From contig CAZXFH010000027.1 in assembly GCA_964640055.1 (NCBI GenBank), positions 1-17,981 on the forward strand: a DNA stretch of 17,981 nt. Direction: 5' to 3'. Below are positions 1 to 17,981 of this stretch, piece by piece. Within the stretch, counting starts at the first letter, position 1. Every line of letters begins with the position of its first letter. The position numbers were made by a program, and so were the translations under genes. Below the pieces are notes generated by a model that had not been told where the DNA came from, ran no database searches, and saw only the letters and a list, made by a program, of their open reading frames with translations. The DNA is from an uncultured bacterium. GTDB lineage: Bacteria > Fidelibacterota > UBA2242 > JAFGTP01.

Positions 1-2234
1 TGTCTGATGTCACCCAGCTCACCTTTACGCCCGGTACCGATGAAAACGGATTTCCCTATGCAACCTTTCAGTTTCAGGTCAATGATGCTGTGGGTAACTG
101 GTCAGCGGATTATACCGTGACTTTCAATGTAAGAAGCGTAAACGATTCACCCGTCGTGGCTGATACCATTCCGGACCAGATCGCTTATGAAGATGCCGCT
201 TTTACCTTTACTTTTGGAGATACTGTTTTTAATGATGGGGATACCAGCGACAGTTTGCGGTACACGGCCACCTTATCCGATGCCAGTGCCCTACCCAACT
301 GGCTTTCTTTTGAGGGGGCTAATCCGCGCACGTTCAGCGGTACACCGGGAAATGATGATATTGATACTCTCACTGTGAAGGTCACGGCCACTGATGACTC
401 TGCCGCTAGTGCCTTTACAGCATTTGAGTTGGCCGTAATCAACACCAATGATCCCCCTATACTGACCGCAATTCCGGATACGATGTGTAATGAAGACAGT
501 CGTTTGACTATCTCAGTGACCGCCAGCGATGTGGATGCCATGAATAACCTATTATTAAGTGTATCCGCAGATACTTCCGCAGTTACAGCGGAATTTTCCG
601 CGAAAGGATCAGAATTGACTCAGGAGTTACTGATCACCCCGCAATCCAACTGGAATGGCACAGCCACAATTACCATCGTGGTTAATGACCAGGAATCCAA
701 AGCAACTGATACAACCGGTTTTACAATTACCATCTTAGCCAGAAATGATGCACCGGTAATCACCACGACAGAATTAACAGCGGCCATGGAAGATCAAACC
801 TACCATTTCAGTTTTACCGCAACCGATCCAGACCTGATCTATGGCGATACTTTGACCTATGCATTATCTGTCTCTCCCCAAGGCATGACAATTGATACCA
901 ACACAGGCGAAATCACCTGGTTACCAGACAATGGTGATGTCGGTGATACCAGCCTAACCGTCACAGTCAGCGATGATAGTAGCGCGACTGATGAAGAAAG
1001 CTTTACGCTAACAGTACATAACACCAATGATCCCCCACTGGTTGCTAATACCATTCCGAACCAAATCGCTACCGAAGACAGCTTGTTCTCTTTTACTTTT
1101 GGTGATACCGTTTTTACTGATATAGACGCTGACGACAGTTTAAGGTTCACAGCCAATCTGTCGGATGGCAGTGCCTTACCGGACTGGCTTGGGTTTGAGG
1201 AATCCACTCCACGTACCTTCAGCGGTACTCCTACAAATGAGGATATCGACACCATTAGCGTACAGGTTACAGCCATTGATGACTCTGCCGCTAACACCGC
1301 CACCGAGTTTGAGATCACCGTGATTAATATCAATGATCCACCGGTCATTACAAATCTGCCGGACACCGCTTTTGCCGAGGACAAACAATTATCTTTAGGA
1401 CTGAATTATTTCGCTTCCTTTGTGGAAGATCCTGATACGCCCGATAGCCTTTTGAGCTTTGCAATATCAGAGGCAAACTTAGTTCACTTCTCACTCGAAG
1501 AGGATTCTTTATTTTTATATGCAGCGCCAAATATATTTGGTGTTGATACTTTAATCGTTGCTGTTAATGACGGCGAATACCAGGACTCCACGCCAATGAT
1601 TGTGAATATCCTGCCGGTTAATGACGCACCCATTTTTACTGAAATAATGCCCGATACGATCCGCTTTGATTCCAATCAAGCGGATACCCTTGAATTAACC
1701 GGATTATTTACAGATATTGATACACCCGATTCATTACTGGTCTTATCCTATGTTTACAGCAGGTTTGTAAATTATGAGCGGATTGACTCGCTAAACATCA
1801 TCAAACTATCGACTGAAAATAATCAGGCCGGTACCGATACTCTGATACTATCCGTTTCAGATGGAGAATTAGAGACCATCGATTCCGTGTTAATTCAGGT
1901 GAAAAAAATAACTGGTATTGATTATGTGATGGGTCAAACACCCAAAGAGTTTAAATTATATCAAAATTATCCCAATCCCTTTAATCCTACTACCCATATA
2001 ATCTACAGCATACCCCAGGATTGTGAAGTAGAGCTGAGAATTTATGATATTCGTGGCAGAGAAATTGCTCTACTGGTTAAGGAAAAGCAGGGACCCAAAA
2101 ATTACAGAGTTATTTGGGACGGCTGCAATCAATCCGGTAGACAGGTTGCGAGTGGTATCTATTTTTACCAGATAATCGCTAAGTCAAAAAATAAAACCTT
2201 TATCAAAACTAAAAAGATGATGTTTTTGGAATAA
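1..2234 (+). CDS. 5'-truncated giant cell-surface adhesin with repeated cadherin-like (NDAP/NDPP-linked) and putative-Ig (PF05345-like) domains and a C-terminal T9SS (Por secretion) sorting domain
   Basis: The reading frame is open from base 3 with no stop, so the gene starts upstream of the window. The ORF track entry 90..2234 begins at an internal GTG. Segments ending in VNDSP/TNDPP/NDAP recur, and LSDxSALPxWLxF...RTFSGTP motifs are typical of bacterial cadherin-like and dystroglycan-type Ig domains. The last ~85 aa (KLYQNYPNPFNPTT...IYDIRGREIA...GIYFYQI) match the T9SS C-terminal domain signature. Confidence 0.8.
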   Translation, partial: SDVTQLTFTPGTDENGFPYATFQFQVNDAVGNWSADYTVTFNVRSVNDSPVVADTIPDQIAYEDAAFTFTFGDTVFNDGDTSDSLRYTATLSDASALPNWLSFEGANPRTFSGTPGNDDIDTLTVKVTATDDSAASAFTAFELAVINTNDPPILTAIPDTMCNEDSRLTISVTASDVDAMNNLLLSVSADTSAVTAEFSAKGSELTQELLITPQSNWNGTATITIVVNDQESKATDTTGFTITILARNDAPVITTTELTAAMEDQTYHFSFTATDPDLIYGDTLTYALSVSPQGMTIDTNTGEITWLPDNGDVGDTSLTVTVSDDSSATDEESFTLTVHNTNDPPLVANTIPNQIATEDSLFSFTFGDTVFTDIDADDSLRFTANLSDGSALPDWLGFEESTPRTFSGTPTNEDIDTISVQVTAIDDSAANTATEFEITVININDPPVITNLPDTAFAEDKQLSLGLNYFASFVEDPDTPDSLLSFAISEANLVHFSLEEDSLFLYAAPNIFGVDTLIVAVNDGEYQDSTPMIVNILPVNDAPIFTEIMPDTIRFDSNQADTLELTGLFTDIDTPDSLLVLSYVYSRFVNYERIDSLNIIKLSTENNQAGTDTLILSVSDGELETIDSVLIQVKKITGIDYVMGQTPKEFKLYQNYPNPFNPTTHIIYSIPQDCEVELRIYDIRGREIALLVKEKQGPKNYRVIWDGCNQSGRQVASGIYFYQIIAKSKNKTFIKTKKMMFLE
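166..468 (+). repeat. Intragenic direct repeat copy A (~300 bp domain duplication inside the adhesin gene)
   Basis: The nucleotide string ccattccggaccagatcgc...gatgactctgccgct...aatgatccccct is visibly similar to 1051-1345, at roughly 70-75% identity by eye. The protein segments IPDQIAYEDAAFTFTFGDTVFNDGDTSDSLRYTATLSD and IPNQIATEDSLFSFTFGDTVFTDIDADDSLRFTANLSD align. Confidence 0.7.
1051..1345 (+). repeat. Intragenic direct repeat copy B
   Basis: Partner of 166-468: ccattccgaaccaaatcgc...gatgactctgccgct...aatgatccaccg. Confidence 0.7.
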
Positions 2235-2456
2235 AAAAGGGCAGAAACAGGGCTATAATACACTGATCAGAGATCGTTTCCCAGCTGGATTGATGCTATC
2301 CGGTACGAAATTCAAGACAGATAAATTCTATTATCAGAGTTGATGTGTGATCCAGGAGAGTGGTGCTAACTAAATTCCGTCTGATATCTTACCTGTTTGG
2401 GCGGCCTAAATCAGCTTTCCTGCAGACCTAGGGAAAACTTTCACGATCACTTTTTA

Positions 2457-2486
2457 TTTGCATTCTCACTTTCTAGCATCTATATT
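2457..2486 (+). promoter_or_regulatory. Candidate sigma70-like promoter for the his leader/operon (-35 TTTGCA, 18-nt spacer, -10 TATATT)
   Basis: TTTGCA at 2457-2462 and TATATT at 2481-2486 lie about 28 nt upstream of the leader ATG. This is based on the sequence pattern only. Confidence 0.3.
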
Positions 2487-2513
2487 TAAAGGTTATTGAA
2501 AGTGAGCGAGTCA

Positions 2514-2582
2514 ATGTCAAGACACACCGACAATTTACATCATCATGGCCATATCAGCTTCGCAGGGAGAACCGGGATGTAA
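2514..2582 (+). CDS. hisL: Histidine-rich leader peptide (MSRHTDNLHHHGHISFAGRTGM), candidate his operon attenuation leader
   Basis: A 22-codon ORF has five His codons clustered at 2538-2552 (CAT CAT CAT GGC CAT). It sits about 80 nt upstream of hisG and is followed by an antiterminator/terminator arrangement. Confidence 0.55.
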   Translation: MSRHTDNLHHHGHISFAGRTGM

Positions 2583-2608
2583 TTGTTTGCTGTCCAAATT
2601 CCAAGATT

Positions 2609-2639
2609 AAACCCGGTTCGCTGAGAATCGGGTTTTTTT
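2609..2639 (+). terminator. Attenuator: intrinsic terminator hairpin (aaacccggttc-GCUGA-gaatcgggttt, 11 bp with one G-U) followed by a T7 tract
   Basis: The stem and loop were read directly from the sequence. Its 5' arm segment cccggttc (2612-2619) is also the exact reverse complement of gaaccggg (2569-2576) at the end of the leader ORF. That gives two mutually exclusive antiterminator and terminator structures. Confidence 0.6.
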
Positions 2640-2664
2640 ATCTTTAAAACCGATGGAGCCTATT

Positions 2665-3519
2665 ATGATCACCTTAGCCATCCAAAAAGCGGGTCGCCTC
2701 AGTGAAAAAAGTATGCGTTTGCTCCGGGAATGCGACATCCACTGTGAAAATGGCGGCCGGACCAAATTAAAAATCAAGGCCGGCAATTTTCCGCTGGAAG
2801 TACTGCATATGCGGGATGATGATATCCCGGAATGTATCCGCGACGGCATTGCGGATATCGGTATCGTCGGCGAAAATGTCTATCTGGAAAAGCAGCCTCA
2901 GCTGCGTTGTATCGAACGGTTGGGTTTTGCCAAATGCCGGTTGTCGATTGGCGTACCCAGGGACATGTCCTATAAGTCTATTACTGATCTGGAGAACAAA
3001 AGTATTGCGACCTCCTATCCCAACATTTTACGGAATTATTTAGATGATAATCAGGTAAACGCCGAGATTCATGAAATCAGTGGATCAGTGGAACTGGCAC
3101 CCAGTATTGGTCTGGCAGATACGGTCTTTGATGTCGTGAGTAGTGGCAGTACCCTGATCAGCAATGGATTAAAAGAGGTAGAGACGGTGGTCCGTTCCGA
3201 AGCTGTTTTAATCAGCCCGGATGATCTGTCTGCTGATAAAGACGAACTCTTAAACCAGCTGCTATTTCGTATCCGGGCAGTCAACCGTGCCCGCCAGAGA
3301 AAATACATTCTACTGAATGCGCCCAATAATGCCATTGACCGGATCTGCGCTATTTTGCCAGGCATAAAGAGCCCGACGGTCATGCCCTTATCTGAATCAG
3401 GCTGGAGTTCAGTCCATTCCGTAATCGCTGAAGATCAATTCTGGGAAAACATTCAAAGTCTCAAAGAGGCCGGTGCCCAGGGCATTCTGGTCTTCCCCAT
3501 TGAAAAAATGATTCTCTAA
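2665..3519 (+). CDS. hisG: ATP phosphoribosyltransferase, long form (HisG)
   Basis: The product aligns along its full length with the long-form HisG family (MITLAIQKAGRLSEKS..., C-terminal regulatory domain present). A GGAG motif lies 6 nt upstream of the ATG at 2665. The ORF track starts at an alternative ATG at 2653. Confidence 0.9.
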   Translation: MITLAIQKAGRLSEKSMRLLRECDIHCENGGRTKLKIKAGNFPLEVLHMRDDDIPECIRDGIADIGIVGENVYLEKQPQLRCIERLGFAKCRLSIGVPRDMSYKSITDLENKSIATSYPNILRNYLDDNQVNAEIHEISGSVELAPSIGLADTVFDVVSSGSTLISNGLKEVETVVRSEAVLISPDDLSADKDELLNQLLFRIRAVNRARQRKYILLNAPNNAIDRICAILPGIKSPTVMPLSESGWSSVHSVIAEDQFWENIQSLKEAGAQGILVFPIEKMIL

Positions 3520-12246: not shown

Positions 12247-14952
12247 ATGAAATTAATCAAAATTGTTAGTTTTTACTTACTTTTCGGTAGTGTACTCCTG
12301 ATCGCCTCCCAGGCCGGGAAAGTCTATCTGGTCTTGGGCTCGGATACCGCGATCTGGGATGGCATGAGCACCGGCCGTTTTCACTGTACCTATGATCTGA
12401 GTTTGTATACGGATCCCACCCGTAATGCCAATCAGATCATGGATTCCAGCTACCGGAATCAGTTCGTTGATTCCTACGGGACCCCGATGAAAATGACCTG
12501 GTGGATGATGTGTGGTAACATTTTCCGCTATGCCACCAACACCAATATTCCGATTCCGAATATCATGACCATGTACTTGATGAAAAAATACTACCTCCCG
12601 GAAATAAATGCGATCGGTGACGAGCTCTCGCTGCATTACCATACTTTTAAATGGAGTGATTATGATGGGGATGGCCTGTGGTACTGGAATCAAGCGCTGA
12701 CCTTTTCCGAATGTCGGGATGATTGGAATTTTACCCTGTGTCAACTTCTGCTGGAAGAGCAGGTTTTCCCGGTCTCCTTCCGCAGTGGCTGGCACTACAT
12801 GGACAATGAATGGCAGCAAAATTTGAATGACCTCCTTCCCTACAGCATGCACAATGCCTATCCGTCCAAAAAAACTGAAGATACCGAACCCCTGGACAAT
12901 GTAATTGACTGGTCGCAGGCACCATCAGAATTTGTGCCCTATCATCCCGCTCCGGAAAACTACCAACTGCCGGGCGACAGTCCGGGCTGGAATTTGCGTT
13001 CGGCCCATTTCTGGGGCGTTCGTGCGCGTGACCTGATGGATACGGTTTTTGCCGCAGCTGCCAATGGCACGGATCAAATAGCCTGCTTCTGGGGGCATCT
13101 CCCGGAAACAGATTTTAACACCAATGTTGAAATTATGGATAGCCTGGCCCACAAAATGGCCAATAAATATCCGGAAGTGAAATTTCGCTACTGTACTGCT
13201 ATCGAAGGCATGCAGCGCTGGCAGCAGACGAGCGACAGCCTGGCTCCTGAAGTCACTCTGGAACAAACCGGCAATGAAACGGAAATTGGCTTCCGGATTA
13301 CCTCCAATGAAGCCACCTTTCAGCCGGTTCCTTTTCTGGCAGTCAAGGATATCTATGAAAATTATTTTATCATGGATTGCTATGCGACGGGCACAAACAC
13401 CTGGGAAACAACCGAAACAATCAACCGGGAGCTGCTTGCCAAAGTAGGGGCGGCCCTCTGTGATAGTATGGGTAACCAAAGTATGGAATTTATCAAATAT
13501 CTGCCCGATGACCAGTTCATTGACAATACTGACGATGGTTATACCGAGCTGGCGGGTAACTGGACGACCACAACAGACCGGACCTGGGGACTGGACGCCA
13601 GAATAAGCACCCTCAGCGAAAACGATTCAAATGTGGTTCAGTGGACTCCGGCGATCCAGAAAAGCGGTTTATACAATCTCTTTATTCAGGTGCCTACGGT
13701 AAACAATGCTGCCGAACACACTGTTTTCAAAATCATCGCTGGTGGCATACCGGTGGATACCATCACTTTTGATGCGGCCCTGCCACCGGATGAATGGATC
13801 TATATCAGCACCACAGAGCTATCCGCAGGGGCCAGCAACCATTTACAGATGAAAATAAAAAACACCTCGCAAACAGAGGTTCAGATCGCGGCGGATGTGG
13901 CCAAATTTTCGGCTCTGGTGCGGGAATATGATTTGGTCTTTGACACCGATTTGATCTACTTCGGGGAAGTCAGTGTCGAAGACACCGTTACCCAAACCTT
14001 AAAGTTACAGAATCAGGGTTATCAAGCGCTCACTATTCAAGAGGTCACCTCTCTGAAAGGGCTATGTCAGGTTACGGCTGAATTTCCGTTGCAGGTCCCG
14101 CAAATGGGCTCGATCCAACTGCCAGTTTGGTTCTACAGTACGGAATTAGGGTCAGTGTCGGATACCCTGCTGATCACCAGTAACGATCCGCGTAATCCAC
14201 AAAGCAAAATCCCGGTGAGCGCGGATGTACGACCTTTCTTTACCATCATCGATAATGAGGACTCTGTTTATTATCAGGAATATGGTAATTGGCACACCAG
14301 TGTAGCCGAGGCCTATGGTCCTTCCAGCCGCTATGCCTGGCTCAACTCCAGTCCCTTAGCCAGTGCGGAATTCCAATCCCGGGTAAAGAAAAATGGCATC
14401 TATGAAATTTTTGAAATTGTTCCCCGGACAGTAAACGCCACTGATCATGCCCTCTATAAACTGATTGTTGGGGAAACAGTAAAGGATTCAATTATTATCA
14501 ATCAAAACACCGATAGCGGGGGTTGGATATCCCTGGGTCAATATTATCTGCCAGCAGATGAGGCTGTTAAGATAAAAGTGATTGATACTGGTCAGAGCAC
14601 CCTGGGGCATGTACTGCGGGCCGATGCGATCAAGATCAGCCTGATCGAAGAAGTAACTCAGATCGCAGACAGTCAGGACCAGATACCTTTGACATATTCT
14701 CTGGGTCAGAATTATCCCAATCCCTTCAACGCAACCACCACGATTCCCTATACCATTCCCAAACAGGGCCGCGTTCAGGTGACGATCTACAATACGCTGG
14801 GACAAACAGTGGTAAAACTGGTGGATGAGATCCAAACAGCGGGGCAATACCAAGTAAAATTGCAGGTGGGTCATTATGGTTCCGGCATCTATCTCTACCA
14901 GCTGAAAACCGATCAATACTGTGCCACCAAAAAATTGATCCTGGTGAAGTGA
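12247..14952 (+). CDS. Secreted multidomain T9SS cargo protein: signal peptide, unassigned N-terminal domain, golvesin-C-like domain, choice-of-anchor-D/HYDIN-type Ig-like domain, second golvesin-C-like domain, T9SS C-terminal sorting domain
   Basis: An N-terminal signal peptide is present (MKLIKIVSFYLLFGSVLLIASQAG). Two paralogous ~130-aa domains (about 13517-13910 and 14245-14640) have the pattern IDNxD...YxExGxW...NATxH..YK...INQNTDSGGWISLGQYYL...VLRADAIKI, which resembles the golvesin C-terminal domain. An Ig-like domain lies between them (EYDLVFDTDLIYFGEVSVEDTVTQ...ITSNDPRNP). The last ~84 aa (LGQNYPNPFNATTTIPYTIP...GIYLYQL) form a T9SS C-terminal domain. Confidence 0.8.
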   Translation: MKLIKIVSFYLLFGSVLLIASQAGKVYLVLGSDTAIWDGMSTGRFHCTYDLSLYTDPTRNANQIMDSSYRNQFVDSYGTPMKMTWWMMCGNIFRYATNTNIPIPNIMTMYLMKKYYLPEINAIGDELSLHYHTFKWSDYDGDGLWYWNQALTFSECRDDWNFTLCQLLLEEQVFPVSFRSGWHYMDNEWQQNLNDLLPYSMHNAYPSKKTEDTEPLDNVIDWSQAPSEFVPYHPAPENYQLPGDSPGWNLRSAHFWGVRARDLMDTVFAAAANGTDQIACFWGHLPETDFNTNVEIMDSLAHKMANKYPEVKFRYCTAIEGMQRWQQTSDSLAPEVTLEQTGNETEIGFRITSNEATFQPVPFLAVKDIYENYFIMDCYATGTNTWETTETINRELLAKVGAALCDSMGNQSMEFIKYLPDDQFIDNTDDGYTELAGNWTTTTDRTWGLDARISTLSENDSNVVQWTPAIQKSGLYNLFIQVPTVNNAAEHTVFKIIAGGIPVDTITFDAALPPDEWIYISTTELSAGASNHLQMKIKNTSQTEVQIAADVAKFSALVREYDLVFDTDLIYFGEVSVEDTVTQTLKLQNQGYQALTIQEVTSLKGLCQVTAEFPLQVPQMGSIQLPVWFYSTELGSVSDTLLITSNDPRNPQSKIPVSADVRPFFTIIDNEDSVYYQEYGNWHTSVAEAYGPSSRYAWLNSSPLASAEFQSRVKKNGIYEIFEIVPRTVNATDHALYKLIVGETVKDSIIINQNTDSGGWISLGQYYLPADEAVKIKVIDTGQSTLGHVLRADAIKISLIEEVTQIADSQDQIPLTYSLGQNYPNPFNATTTIPYTIPKQGRVQVTIYNTLGQTVVKLVDEIQTAGQYQVKLQVGHYGSGIYLYQLKTDQYCATKKLILVK

Positions 14953-15219
14953 ACAGACCAAACCAAATTGGCCAGCCCTTTCGAAGGCTGCCGGTGGTTG
15001 GCAATCGGGAAACTGTTAAAACCGTTTCTGTAATTTTGAGTTTTTGTTATTTTCGCGTTAACTCTCGCACCCACAGTTAAAACTGTGGGTTAATCCGAAT
15101 AATACCTGGACAGCGATGATTTTTGCTAAGGGTCACACCGCAGAGCAGTGTGGCCAGACTAGACTTCGTCCCGATAGCTGATCTTATACTCGAGCTGAGG
15201 ACTAGGACAACCCCCTTTA

Positions 15220-15249
15220 TCCCCCTTTGATAAGGGGGACGTTTTTTTT
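15220..15249 (+). terminator. Intrinsic terminator-like hairpin tcccccTT-TGAT-AAggggga followed by T8
   Basis: The stem is a perfect 8 bp (15220-15227 with 15232-15239) with a 4-nt loop, and a T8 tract follows at 15242-15249. It lies about 270 nt downstream of the T9SS cargo gene stop. Confidence 0.6.
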
Positions 15250-15454
15250 GACTGAGTGTCATAGAATCAACATCGCTCATAATCATTGTGAATTTTTACA
15301 CCTCTCCTGATTCCCACAGTGGGGTTTTCTCGAGGTCATTTTTCAAATAATTTTTCAGTTTACACCTCATTTGGTTTTATTCTAAATTGCTGATTTACAA
15401 GTCATGCTCAACTGCTCAACTCAAAAAACCAAACCGACCCTATCGCGTTCAGGT

Positions 15455-15472
15455 CCCCCCTATGAAGGGGGG
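15455..15472. repeat. GC-clamp hairpin ccccccTATGAAgggggg, one of several poly-C/poly-G hairpins in this intergenic region
   Basis: A 6-bp all-GC stem with a 6-nt loop. The related structures C5-A-G7 at 15627-15639 and cccacagTTAAAActgtggg at 15070-15089 lie in the same 860-bp spacer. Confidence 0.4.
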
Positions 15473-15535
15473 AAGTGAAGGGGGGTGTCAGACAATCAGT
15501 AGTTCTTATGACCCCAGTTCTTACAACCCCCTGTC

Positions 15536-15564
15536 TCCCCCTTTGATAAGGGGGACCTTTTTTT
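15536..15564 (+). terminator. Second copy of the same terminator-like element (tcccccTT-TGAT-AAggggga + T7)
   Basis: The hairpin is identical to the one at 15220-15249. The repeated context acaaccccct...tccccctttgataagggggac...ttttttt is shared with 15208-15249. Confidence 0.55.
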
Positions 15565-15815
15565 GAGCGGGTGTTGTTTTATCGGTATCTCTCATTATAT
15601 TCATCGGTTATGATACCTCCCTATATCCCCCAGGGGGGGACCTAATTTAGAAAATTGCTGAATAATTAACATTAGGGTTAGATATGGAATATCACAATAG
15701 GAAATACGAAATGATTGTAATTCATAATTCACAAATAAATGCTTGGTAGATCACTCATATTTCCATAATATTCAGTTGATTATGAATTGGTTAATACTTT
15801 TATAAAGAGTTGATC

Positions 15816-16508
15816 ATGCGTCAAATTTTCCCCCTGGGTTGTCTACCCTTTATGTTCTTCCTTTTAATTCTATTAATTCCCCTTTTTCTGGCAGACGTGA
15901 TGTTGACCGCTTTGAGCCGCTTGGGCTTAGCGCCGCTGAGCGCCCTGATTACCGGTATTGGAATTTTCCTAGGTGGCATCGTCAATATTCCTGTCAAGCA
16001 AGTGAGACGCGAGCAGCCGATTGATAACAGACCGTCGCGACTATACGGTCTGGACCGCTTTTTCCCCCGGCAAACCAGTTCGCGCAATTACACGGTGATT
16101 GCCGTTAATCTGGGAGGGTGCGTTATTCCGGCTTGTTTGGCTGTCTATGAATTATTACGGCTGCTCGCTCAAGGAGCTGCCCCTCTGATGGCAGCCCTGT
16201 TTGCGATTGCCATCAATGTGGGAATCTGCTACTGGTTAGCCCGGCCGATTCCGAATACCGGCATTGCTTTGCCAGCCTTGGTTCCGGGCATCACAGCAGC
16301 GCTATTGGCCTTGCTTTTTATGCCTGATTTTGCCCCACCGGTCGCTTTTGCCGCCGGTGTCCTAGGGCCTTTGATCGGCGCTGACCTGCTGCACCTGAAA
16401 GACATCCGCCGGATTGCCACCCGGGTCGCCAGTATTGGCGGGGCCGGAACCTTTGATGGCATTGTGATCTCCGGTTTACTGGCCACGCTGCTGGTCCCCT
16501 CTCTGTAA
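15816..16508 (+). CDS. Polytopic integral membrane protein, probably DUF1614 family
   Basis: The protein has about six hydrophobic helices. Its conserved-looking C-terminal motif ASIGGAGTFDGIVISG recalls DUF1614 proteins. The ATG at 15816 is the first ATG of the ORF, and the track's TTG at 15810 is less likely. No search was run to confirm the family. Confidence 0.55.
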   Translation: MRQIFPLGCLPFMFFLLILLIPLFLADVMLTALSRLGLAPLSALITGIGIFLGGIVNIPVKQVRREQPIDNRPSRLYGLDRFFPRQTSSRNYTVIAVNLGGCVIPACLAVYELLRLLAQGAAPLMAALFAIAINVGICYWLARPIPNTGIALPALVPGITAALLALLFMPDFAPPVAFAAGVLGPLIGADLLHLKDIRRIATRVASIGGAGTFDGIVISGLLATLLVPSL

Positions 16509-16738
16509 ACACCTGCTTTGGTCTAATTACTAAGTATCAGTGCTTGGTTTTTACGTATAACACTTTTATACATTTCTAAACAATATTCGGCTAAATTGAA
16601 TATTATCGGGTTATTTCTCCGGGGGCAATTTTTGGCCTGGAGTTGCTTTTCAGGCATTATATGGTTAATTTATAATATGATGTAACCATTAAAATTTTAT
16701 TTTATCTAAAATTTGTTAAACAAAAGAGGAGGTTTAAG

Positions 16739-17101
16739 ATGTCATACTATCATGAACCGGTTGAAGAGCTCAGTGCGCAGACCCGTAACTGTACCCGGGC
16801 ACTCAACAGCTTAAAAGAAGAGATCGAAGCAGCGGACTGGTACAACCAGCGGGTGGATGCCAGTCAGGATGAAAATCTGAAAAATATTCTCGCCCATAAC
16901 CGGGACGAAGAGATCGAACATGCCTGTATGTTGATCGAGTGGTTGCGTCGCAATATGGATGGTTGGGACGAGGAATTGAAAACCTATCTGTTTAAAGAAG
17001 GCGATATAACCCAACTGGAAGAAGCAGGCGCAGAAAATGAAGCGGATCCCGATACTACTTCCGGGGAATCAACAAGTTTAAATATCGGCAAAAACAAATA
17101 A
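16739..17101 (+). CDS. Encapsulated ferritin-like protein (EncFtn) cargo with C-terminal encapsulin targeting peptide
   Basis: The blocks EEIEAADWYNQRVDAS...ILAHNRDEEIEHACMLIEWLRRN match the EncFtn di-iron site (Glu, Glu, His). The acidic C-terminal tail ends in TSLNIGKNK, which matches the family-1 cargo-loading peptide consensus (SLxIGxLK-like). A strong Shine-Dalgarno site (AAGAGGAGG) lies 5 nt upstream. Confidence 0.8.
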   Translation: MSYYHEPVEELSAQTRNCTRALNSLKEEIEAADWYNQRVDASQDENLKNILAHNRDEEIEHACMLIEWLRRNMDGWDEELKTYLFKEGDITQLEEAGAENEADPDTTSGESTSLNIGKNK

Positions 17102-17117
17102 TTAGGAGAAAGATACC

Positions 17118-17918
17118 ATGGATTTATTGAAAAAGTCTCTGGCGCCGATCACCGCCGATGCCTGGGATGAAATAAATGAGGAAGCCACCCGGGTCCTGAA
17201 AAACAAACTGTCGGCCCGCAAATTTGTGGATGTGGCCGGACCCAAGGGATGGGATTATGCCGCAGTTCCGCTGGGTAAACTGCAAATTTCCGATCAACAA
17301 AAAAAGGATGCGGTCCGCCATGGCATTCACCAGGTGCAGCCCTTAGTTGAAACGCGCCGCAGTTTTCAATTAGACCTGTGGGAACTGGACAATATCAATC
17401 GCGGCAATCCCGCAATAGAGCTGGGTGACCTGACCCAAGCAGCCGCCGAGTCAGCGGCTTTTGAAGAAAAGGCGATCTATTACGGACTTTCAAAAGCCAA
17501 TATCAAGGGCTTAAAAGAAAGCAGTGCTCACAAATCCCTGGCTTCGCCGCAGAATAAAGAAGATTTTTTGAACAGTGTCGCAGATGGTGTCAACCAATTC
17601 AAGTTAGCCTCTATTGAAGGCCCCTATACCCTGATTCTGCATCCGGAAAAATGGAAAGAGATGATCAGCTGTTCACAAGGTTACCCGGTCACCCGCCACC
17701 TGGATGAAATATTGGGGGGTAACATCCTTGTTTCTGATAATGTGAACCAGAATGATATGTTTCTGGTCACCGAACGGGGTGGTGATTTTGTGTTAACGCT
17801 GGGCGCTGATTTTTCGCTGGGTTATGAACATCATGATCACCAGAAAGTACAGCTGTTTCTGGCCGAATCCTTTACCTTTCAGGTCCTGGATCCGGAAGCG
17901 GTGATCATTTTTACTTAA
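17118..17918 (+). CDS. Family 1 encapsulin nanocompartment shell protein (HK97-fold, linocin M18 / Thermotoga maritima type)
   Basis: The 266-aa product aligns along its full length with the T. maritima encapsulin as recalled from memory (MDLLKKSLAPITADAWDEIN...RKFVDVAGPKGWDYAAVPLG...FQLDLWELDN...IEGPYTLIL...ERGGDFVLTLGADFSLGYE). An AGGAGA Shine-Dalgarno site lies 8 nt upstream, and the gene sits 17 nt downstream of its cargo gene. Confidence 0.88.
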   Translation: MDLLKKSLAPITADAWDEINEEATRVLKNKLSARKFVDVAGPKGWDYAAVPLGKLQISDQQKKDAVRHGIHQVQPLVETRRSFQLDLWELDNINRGNPAIELGDLTQAAAESAAFEEKAIYYGLSKANIKGLKESSAHKSLASPQNKEDFLNSVADGVNQFKLASIEGPYTLILHPEKWKEMISCSQGYPVTRHLDEILGGNILVSDNVNQNDMFLVTERGGDFVLTLGADFSLGYEHHDHQKVQLFLAESFTFQVLDPEAVIIFT

Positions 17919-17981
17919 ATACCCCCCTCCGTTATGGTGGGAAAACCATACCCAATCAAAGATCGGCTGTCAGGTAAGGCA

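Follow-up and report, generated by a model that had tools for sequence, protein, structure and literature searches.

An intergenic spacer with four copies of a hairpin module

The window analysed here, a chromosomal stretch of 17,981 nt (18 kb) from an uncultured bacterium of the Fidelibacterota (FCB group), contains between two plus-strand genes an intergenic spacer of 863 nt (positions 14953-15815) with four copies of a short hairpin repeat, hereafter the module, which in other genomes is found at the two ends of small cassettes encoding a DUF559 nuclease. The spacer extends from the stop codon (14952) of a gene for a 901-amino-acid (aa) protein with Golvesin_C and Por_Secre_tail domains (12247-14952) to the ATG (15816) of a DUF1614 gene (15816-16508), the first of a DUF1614-EncFtn-encapsulin cluster. 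A preliminary description of the sequence had pointed to an unusually large non-coding gap, and the spacer indeed lacks a credible open reading frame (ORF), the longest (69 aa) having no Pfam match and running through a repeat copy. No tRNA or tmRNA was found, no Rfam family was matched across the window at gathering thresholds, and a search of the spacer with E-values up to 10 returned exclusively chance matches of miRNA and snoRNA type. All five C5..G5 hairpin matches in the window (0.38 expected) lie inside the spacer.

The module follows the plan ACAA-Cn-spacer-Cn-loop-Gn-AC over 35-40 nt. In the preliminary description it appeared as a 40-nt unit followed by T7-8 and occurring twice; the repeat is found as a 42-nt unit at 15207-15248 and 15523-15564, the two occurrences being 93% identical with starts 316 nt apart. 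Both are real, and the number of copies has to be raised to four, since two structures described separately, the C6/G6 and the C5-A-G7 hairpins, are degenerate members of the same family. All of the additional hairpins proposed at that stage are present, with coordinates that agree to within 1-3 nt (15455-15472, 15627-15639, 15069-15090 and 15312-15324). The shared 21-mer TCCCCCTTTGATAAGGGGGAC occurs twice exactly and once on the minus strand with 3 mismatches, compared with 0.00 occurrences in 200 shuffles. When the window was scanned, with filters off, with the covariance model R1, which was built from 76 modules chosen by regular expression and all derived from other genomes, four sites were recovered (E 2e-10 to 2.5e-4; Table 1), and the next non-overlapping match had an E-value of 0.2. 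Copy 1 is solo, without an inverted partner, and is the same as the module of a metagenome-assembled genome (MAG) of Nitrospirota (L053) over 34 identical nucleotides. The loop of copy 3 has been lost, and a T tract is missing there.

Copies 4 and 2 form the left and right arms (~39 nt each) of an inverted repeat with the hairpins outward, so that 15450-15559 is a short non-coding element bounded by inverted repeats, as are MITEs (miniature transposable elements with inverted repeats). The slightly longer segment 15445-15568 folds into a single long hairpin (-56.2 kcal/mol, z -3.7). A 15-nt tandem duplication at 15501-15530 (AGTTCTTATGACCCC / AGTTCTTACAACCCC) repeats the inner edge of copy 2 and suggests slippage at the module boundary. 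A candidate coding remnant upstream of copy 1 (...LILELRTRTTP*) was unsupported, as the DUF559 profile finds nothing there. Taken by itself, the content of the spacer is ordinary debris: repeat copies, two of them terminator-like.

Table 1. Positions and properties of the module copies and of other features of the spacer
Feature	Positions	Strand	Sequence or layout	Remarks
Copy 1	15205-15248	+	GGACAACCCCC-TTTAT-CCCCC-TTTGATAA-GGGGGAC, then T8	R1 match 15205-15243, 45 bits, E 2e-10
Copy 4, inverted, C6/C6/G6 variant	15450-15488	-	minus strand: ACACCCCCC-TTCACTT-CCCCCC-TTCATA-GGGGGGACCTG; module arms also delimited as GACACCCCCC-TTCACTT-CCCCCC-TTCATA-GGGGGGACCT	R1 26.3 bits, E 1.5e-5; -19.5 kcal/mol, z -3.1; 3 mismatches to the 21-mer
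Hairpin of copy 4, plus-strand reading	15455-15472	+	CCCCCCTATGAAGGGGGG = C6-TATGAA-G6	
Copy 2	15521-15564	+	TTACAACCCCC-TGTCT-CCCCC-TTTGATAA-GGGGGAC, then CT7	R1 match 15521-15559, 40.8 bits, E 2.5e-9; 8-bp stem, 4-nt loop, -14.1 kcal/mol, then U7
Copy 3, degenerate	15611-15644	+	TGATACCTCCC-TATAT-CCCCC-A-GGGGGGGACCTA; arm also delimited as TGATACCTCCC-TATAT-CCCCC-A-GGGGGGGACCT	R1 21.6 bits, E 2.5e-4
Core of copy 3	15627-15639	+	C5-A-G7	
Candidate empty cassette	15450-15559	.	copy 4 (-), 32 nt, copy 2 (+)	gene-less inverted repeat
Segment missing in the related contig L168	15224-15618	.		bounded by copies 1 and 3
Perfect 10-bp-stem hairpin	15069-15090		ACCCACAGTT-AA-AACTGTGGGT	-14.3 kcal/mol, z -4.7
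Weak hairpin with T-rich tract	15006-15060	+	GAAAC..GTTTC	-5.1 kcal/mol, z +0.5
Small hairpin	15312-15324	+	TCCCACAGTGGGG, then TTTTCT	inside the strain-specific segment 15224-15618

The module family in other genomes

An exact scan for the 21-mer across one genome per GTDB species (596 Gb) found it in at least 81 loci of the representatives, from about nine phyla, whereas simple arithmetic gives ~0.3 expected by chance. Copies beyond those of the spacer, whose absence would have counted against the preliminary description, are thus present in other genomes; the source genome is not among the matches listed. The carriers include Alistipes, Rikenellaceae, Cyclobacteriaceae, Chitinophagaceae, Balneolaceae, Brocadiaceae, Nitrospinota, Nitrospirota, Acinetobacter, Prochloron, Syntrophaceae and others; among the matches listed, 13 loci belong to the Balneolaceae MAG LejiaF_44_133 and 6 copies to Alistipes RGIG9435. 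The part 5' of the hairpin (ACA[AT]YCCCCCT-nAA) is conserved in 76 of the 93 copies and was seen in Bacteroidota, Balneolota, Planctomycetota, Nitrospinota, Nitrospirota, Gammaproteobacteria, Cyanobacteria and Desulfobacterota-type MAGs. The copies are biased towards intergenic positions, with 20 of 93 located in open frames of at least 120 codons, though such frames make up 82% of the bases. Elements of ~105 nt in Balneolaceae consist of an inverted module, ~25 nt and a direct module, the same architecture as that of window positions 15450-15559. A phage origin of the family was rejected, the 21-mer being present on 1 viral contig of 2.9 million.

Related Alistipes and Rikenellaceae carry the modules in tandem repeats with periods of 115-212 nt (L024, L027, L029, L031, L051, L052 and L055 compared with L057 and L048), and the copy number varies between syntenic loci, with two units in L027 and one in L057. 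In three Acinetobacter loci (L011, L059 and L076), a solo plus-strand module apparently sits in the loop of an older hairpin, AATCCTTAAT...ATTGAGGATT, with TTTTAT on both sides, which may be a target duplication. A variant class of modules, represented in L164 (1020-1070), L167 (1330-1360 and 1990-2040), L005, L006, L010, L017 and L026, has a small hairpin in place of the spacer between the C-runs; the sequence of this extra hairpin varies and its pairing is kept.

Constraints on the module

Changes in the hairpin are compensatory: of the two positions past the C-run, one pairs in 135 of 140 modules and the other in 125 of 135, and they alternate between TT/AA (76) and TC/GA (47). In an alignment of 146 matches, 92% of the cells pair and 7 of the 8 pairs covary, with changes on both sides in 161 cells compared with 66 ± 5 in shuffles, none of the 500 shuffles reaching 161; fitting of the alignment to the model structure and the choice of seeds by regular expression somewhat inflate these pairing statistics, which counts against the strength of our reading. 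The three runs of a module (inner C-run, stem C-run and G-run) also vary together in length: among 197 unique modules they are 4/4/4 in 69, 5/5/5 in 57 and 6/6/6 in 12, copy 4 of the window being a 6/6/6 member, and the correlation between run lengths (r about 0.66-0.78) may be explained in part by kinship of the sequences. This pattern suggests that the inner C-run is an alternative partner of the G-run, a partner of the inner G-run at the other end, or a repeated protein-binding half-site. For copy 1, ViennaRNA chooses the alternative pairing.

Modules frame DUF559 nuclease genes

On a Cyclobacteriaceae chromosome (L040), an intact DUF559 ORF of 122 aa (PF04480, E 1e-25) lies between an inverted and a direct module, and the direct module begins with the last codons and stop of this ORF (ACA ACC CCC TAA). 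In Rhodohalobacter mucosus (L166), a DUF559 gene is enclosed by AGTCTCCCCTAACAAGGGGAGATTTAGAGGGGTGTT and ACATCCCCCCGCCCCCCTTTTTTAAGGGGGAG, and the whole unit is inserted between the membrane fusion protein and resistance-nodulation-division (RND) genes of an efflux operon. The gene-between-modules layout recurs in L164, L167 and L169; in L169, as in L040, the exact 21-mer of the window is found in the 3' end of the DUF559 gene. The inverted/direct arrangement of copies 4 and 2 in the window matches that of the Balneolaceae elements and of L040, L166 and L169.

Positions 1700-3150 of the Cyclobacteriaceae locus form a tandem array of 5-6 units, each of 170-350 nt, around the one intact DUF559 gene. 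In the array units, the gene start MKI[P/Y]YNPK is fused to the 3' end WIEFRTTP*, with both modules kept, and these units are internal-deletion derivatives of the DUF559 cassette. The array has as neighbours genes for a glycoside hydrolase, a major facilitator superfamily transporter and a cytochrome c protein.

The DUF559 subfamily concerned comprises more than 2,400 detectable relatives, many of them on contigs shorter than 2 kb, and those with a named source come from Balneolaceae, Marinimicrobia, Planctomycetota, Gemmatimonadota, Cyclobacteriaceae and Ekhidna. In 36 of the best 120 homologues, the C-terminal tail is a translated module (...TTP*, QPPNPLF, PPKSPFDKGDFQE or QPPLSPFIKGE), and a few homologues carry N-terminal extensions derived from the inverted module. 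The association was also recovered starting from the protein, in a census of 80 metagenomic DUF559 loci fetched in this way. With model R1, an inverted module was found upstream in 40 loci, a direct module downstream in 35 and both in 27; the background of 19 matches in 215 kb of distal flank corresponds to ~0.6 loci per side expected by chance. Counting by regular expression, over 120 nt of upstream and 90 nt of downstream sequence, gave 31 loci preceded by an inverted module, 29 followed by a direct one and 19 framed by the two, and the distal flanks (229 kb) yielded 19 modules as background.

One end of a locus is the reverse complement of the other, 3-6 nt inside the G-run included, and the ends vary between loci (for example, L101, L125, L126 and L130, with an exact correspondence in L145). 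The cassettes span 408-530 bp, and the similarity between loci stops at their ends: of 118 between-locus alignments that share 200 nt or more with a cassette, 1 continues for over 50 nt beyond its end. The neighbour genes examined, ten drawn at random, were all unrelated housekeeping genes (including those for cysteinyl-tRNA synthetase, CarA, a release factor, a type II secretion ATPase and YceI), with no transposase, integrase or methylase among them. Judged by these alignments and neighbourhoods, the DUF559 cassette behaves as a discrete unit found in unrelated contexts.

A DUF559 profile matched PDB entry 3hrl (E 5e-26) and the catalytic domain of I-Bth0305I (3r3p, E 3e-4), which is an EDxHD homing endonuclease (Taylor et al. 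2011, PMC3239194). DUF559 falls in the Vsr clade of PD-(D/E)XK nucleases, and Vsr, DUF559 and DUF2726 have been grouped together (PMC3424549). In a survey of predicted programmed inversions, "DUF559 domain-containing protein" was 14-fold enriched among the targets (PMC9881135), an enrichment that a gene between inverted repeats would produce. Adjacent cassette-like segments of L138 (1427-2334) and L149 (2270-3188) can be aligned in either orientation, which suggests an inversion or a pair of DUF559 units inverted relative to each other. Some ORFs flanking DUF559 loci in the range L083-L162 look, by eye, like HsdS and HsdR of type I restriction-modification systems, and such neighbours may be related to the inversion enrichment reported in PMC9881135.

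Gain or loss of modules between relatives

The gene order of the window is shared by a relative that is 84-88% identical (L168, a JGI contig), in which the spacer measures 406 nt. According to blastn, positions 10-911 of L168 correspond to 14270-15223 of the window and positions 901-3256 to 15619-17972. At the junction L168 keeps one hybrid, decayed module, ACAACCCCCTGTATCCCTCAAGAAGGACCTAAT; its flanking sequence aligns on the left with the corresponding side of copy 1 and on the right with that of copy 3, the right half and the downstream flank of copy 3 being shared. Either L168 lost the segment by deletion between direct copies, or the lineage of the window gained it by duplication or insertion. 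In both cases the breakpoints lie in modules, and the stretch that carries copies 4 and 2 can be dispensed with. A further contig of the same organism (L001, from Logan) starts inside copy 2, at window position 15527, as expected because repeats break de Bruijn assembly.

Copies 1 and 2 as probable terminators

Under a criterion that combines a GC-rich stem of at least 5 bp, a loop of 3-8 nt and at least 5 T within the next 8 nt, copies 1 and 2 qualify as intrinsic terminators (7-8-bp stems, 4-nt loops, -14 to -16 kcal/mol, T8 and T7, respectively) and copies 3 and 4 do not. The terminator-like character assigned to the repeat at the outset thus holds for the two intact copies, a stem followed by T7-8 being what an intrinsic terminator looks like. 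Copies 1 and 2 are probably tandem terminators placed after the 901-aa gene, and they would separate this gene, encoding a type IX secretion system (T9SS) cargo, from the DUF1614-EncFtn-encapsulin operon. Elsewhere, a T tract, with 5 or more T among the 8 nt that follow, accompanies 32 of 93 exact copies of the 21-mer. Because just a third of the family members have one, the T tracts at copies 1 and 2 may represent local co-option or mere insertion context.

Origin of the window copies

In many bacteria the module serves as terminal inverted repeat to a cassette of 0.41-0.53 kb whose sole gene encodes a DUF559/Vsr-like PD-(D/E)XK nuclease of ~120 aa. In such a cassette the hairpins lie outward and the extra C and G runs toward the gene, with the stop codon often inside the right-hand module. 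We propose that the nuclease recognises the hairpin ends and drives the spread of the unit. Two routes are conceivable: homing, in which the enzyme would cut an empty (-)(+) palindrome and repair would proceed from a filled copy, or excision and insertion through a reaction on extruded hairpins, which would leave no target duplication. Gene-less copies would arise by internal deletion, and arrays would grow and shrink by recombination between copies. In the window, two copies are intact and two decayed, three being in plus orientation and one inverted; copies 4 and 2 would together represent an empty cassette, and copies 1 and 3 solo ends. The four copies belong to the module family, modules are associated with DUF559 genes, and modules have been gained or lost at the strain level with breakpoints inside them. 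We consider it probable that the window copies are gene-less, MITE-like or REP-like debris (REP, repetitive extragenic palindrome) of the DUF559 cassette family in a tolerant intergenic site.

Several observations weigh against this reading. The DUF559 profile found nothing in six-frame translations of the spacer and of the whole window, and the source organism is covered by this 18-kb window only. Recognisable modules are present at just about half of the DUF559 loci, and, conversely, no DUF559 gene lies within 8 kb in the other 80 loci found through the 21-mer, L040 being the sole case; most modules are therefore far from any nuclease gene. The difference between the window and L168 can be explained by plain deletion between direct repeats. 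Many of the records behind the span of about nine phyla are MAGs, and some phylum assignments may be contaminated. A pair of empty and filled sites for a gene-bearing cassette was not recovered, so that it is the distribution of the cassettes that argues for their mobility. Finally, no consistent target-site duplication was found beside 18 cassettes, where an A/T-rich flank extension of the repeat would hide short ones; this result fits both homing and excision/insertion and speaks against DDE-type transposition.

The most serious alternative, which we nevertheless regard as unlikely, reverses the direction of events: DUF559 genes may be secondary invaders that home into pre-existing palindromic repeats of older and independent origin, and the copies in the window would never have been linked to a nuclease. 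Such a history would account for the modules recovered through the 21-mer with no DUF559 gene within 8 kb, as well as for the solo plus-strand modules and tandem arrays of Alistipes and Acinetobacter, and it agrees with the relationship of DUF559 to a known homing endonuclease family. It accords less well with the internally deleted genes of L040, which are still joined to both ends, with the inner arms of the gene-less Balneolaceae elements, which match the gene-bearing cassette of R. mucosus, or with the last codons and stop that lie inside the module in many lineages; moreover, no other mobilising gene was found.

It is quite unlikely that the copies are ordinary Rho-independent terminators of the flanking genes, their likeness to one another having arisen by convergence to a strong GC stem. 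The required stem and T tract are present in copies 1 and 2, which lie downstream of a plus-strand gene, and about a third of the exact copies elsewhere share the T tract (32 of 93). They resemble intrinsic terminators in their GC-rich 7-8-bp stem, 4-nt loop, T7-8 and position 3' of a gene, and differ from them in belonging to a repeat family with an extra conserved segment, two members of which in the window, copies 3 and 4, have no T tract. Termination needs neither the conserved ACAA-Cn-spacer nor an inverted copy devoid of T; the full 34-nt unit recurs without change in a Nitrospirota MAG, and the family is tied to DUF559 genes. In addition, two thirds of the copies lack a T tract, and L168 manages without copies 2 and 4.

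The suggestion in the preliminary description that the spacer encodes one or two small RNAs, ending at 15249 and 15564, was not borne out, and we judge it very unlikely. Weak sigma-70-like matches at 15256-15283 and 15359-15388 do precede the terminator of copy 2; the promoter-like sites number 5, compared with 2.5 ± 1.8 expected, which is not significant, and the spacer contains a single -7 motif of Bacteroidetes type, which lies at 15031, ahead of the two candidate RNAs. The Infernal/Rfam search recommended there gave no matching family even at E-values up to 10, and the segment 15224-15618 is missing from the ~85% identical relative.

Even less probable is a REP element, or bacterial interspersed mosaic element (BIME), mobilised by a REP-associated tyrosine transposase (RAYT). 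The parallel with the REP/BIME and RAYT systems of Enterobacteria and Pseudomonas is close in form: both families consist of imperfect palindromes of 35-40 nt that are strictly intergenic, occur in alternating clusters oriented both ways and number tens per genome, can act as terminators or mRNA stabilisers, and have a cognate gene between inverted copies. The module, however, has no GTAG/CTAC head (among 140 modules the heads read, among others, CCCA in 31, ACAA in 26, AAAT in 23 and CACA in 15), carries an extra C-run as long as the stem, and has a PD-(D/E)XK DUF559 gene rather than a Y1 HUH transposase between its arms. The window has no RAYT gene, and, whereas REP elements are normally species-specific, a single module consensus spans phyla. 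The initial idea of a REP-like family therefore survives insofar as the copies belong to interspersed palindromic repeats present in many genomes, and fails insofar as these are inverted ends of DUF559 cassettes and not REP proper. An integron attC site or gene cassette was rejected, as the inner ends vary (ACAAC, ACATC, CCCAC and AAATC), R''(RYYYAAC) and R'(GTTRRRY) boxes are lacking, and no integrase is found beside the L040 array.

Relation to known mobile elements and wider significance

Under the reading of the window copies as cassette debris, other known systems offer partial parallels. Bacterial MITEs, such as Correia (CREE), RUP, ERIC and Nezha, are likewise short and gene-less, have terminal inverted repeats, break assemblies and are apparent internal-deletion derivatives of a gene-bearing element. 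The modules differ from them in having no DDE transposase partner and no consistent target-site duplication, and in that the putative autonomous element would measure ~0.45 kb and encode a 120-aa nuclease. The EDxHD/Vsr-like homing endonuclease I-Bth0305I has a homologous nuclease domain, and its genes, too, behave selfishly; it is intron-encoded and has N-terminal NUMOD and helix-turn-helix domains (PMC3239194), whereas the cassette genes are free-standing, encode the nuclease domain only and are flanked by hairpins. Elements of the IS200/IS605 group share with the cassettes the hairpins at the ends and a very small size, and they lack target duplication, as the cassettes may also do; their end hairpins are not inverted copies of each other, and they rely on a Y1 HUH transposase (with or without TnpB) instead of DUF559.

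More tentatively, we raise the possibility that DUF559 cassettes are an unrecognised minimal selfish element of ~0.45 kb present in at least nine phyla, in which the nuclease would mobilise or home the unit and the gene-less derivatives would be a major source of REP-like repeats and intrinsic terminators. The searchable literature, which leaves out most subscription journals, yielded no account of hairpin inverted repeats around DUF559 genes, or of the repeat family, so that an earlier description is possible. If the proposal is true, it provides an origin and a candidate enzyme for widespread short GC-clamp hairpin repeats, and a selfish-element role for a large subfamily of the uncharacterised DUF559 nucleases. 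Such repeats interrupt the assembly of metagenomes and give rise to spurious "PPLxKGG" ORFs and, in annotated proteins, to spurious tails. The window would offer a concrete case of mobile-element ends recruited as terminators between operons, and a nuclease recognising a defined hairpin or cruciform would be of practical interest.

Other features of the spacer and its surroundings

Three hairpins of the spacer do not belong to the four copies (Table 1). The perfect hairpin at 15069-15090 lacks a T tract, stands outside the module family and is kept in L168. The weak hairpin at 15006-15060 lies 60 nt upstream, duplicates part of the core of the perfect one and is missing in L168. The third, small hairpin is followed by the short T-rich sequence given in the table.

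The genes at 15816-17918 encode a DUF1614 membrane protein, EncFtn (PF22277) and a Linocin_M18 encapsulin shell, the DUF1614 gene preceding a family-1 encapsulin operon with ferritin cargo, and the order DUF1614-EncFtn-encapsulin, together with a radical SAM gene, is also found in L001 and L168. Two large secreted proteins with T9SS C-terminal sorting domains, encoded at 90-2234 and 12247-14952, flank the region of the his operon; tandem-95 repeats occur in one of them, Golvesin_C and HYDIN/VesB-like immunoglobulin domains in the other. An exact look-up of the 901-aa protein encoded at 12247-14952 gave no record. The his operon of the window is complete (hisGDCBHAFIE), and the best named relatives of its HisD, 59% identical, belong to Bacteroidaceae.

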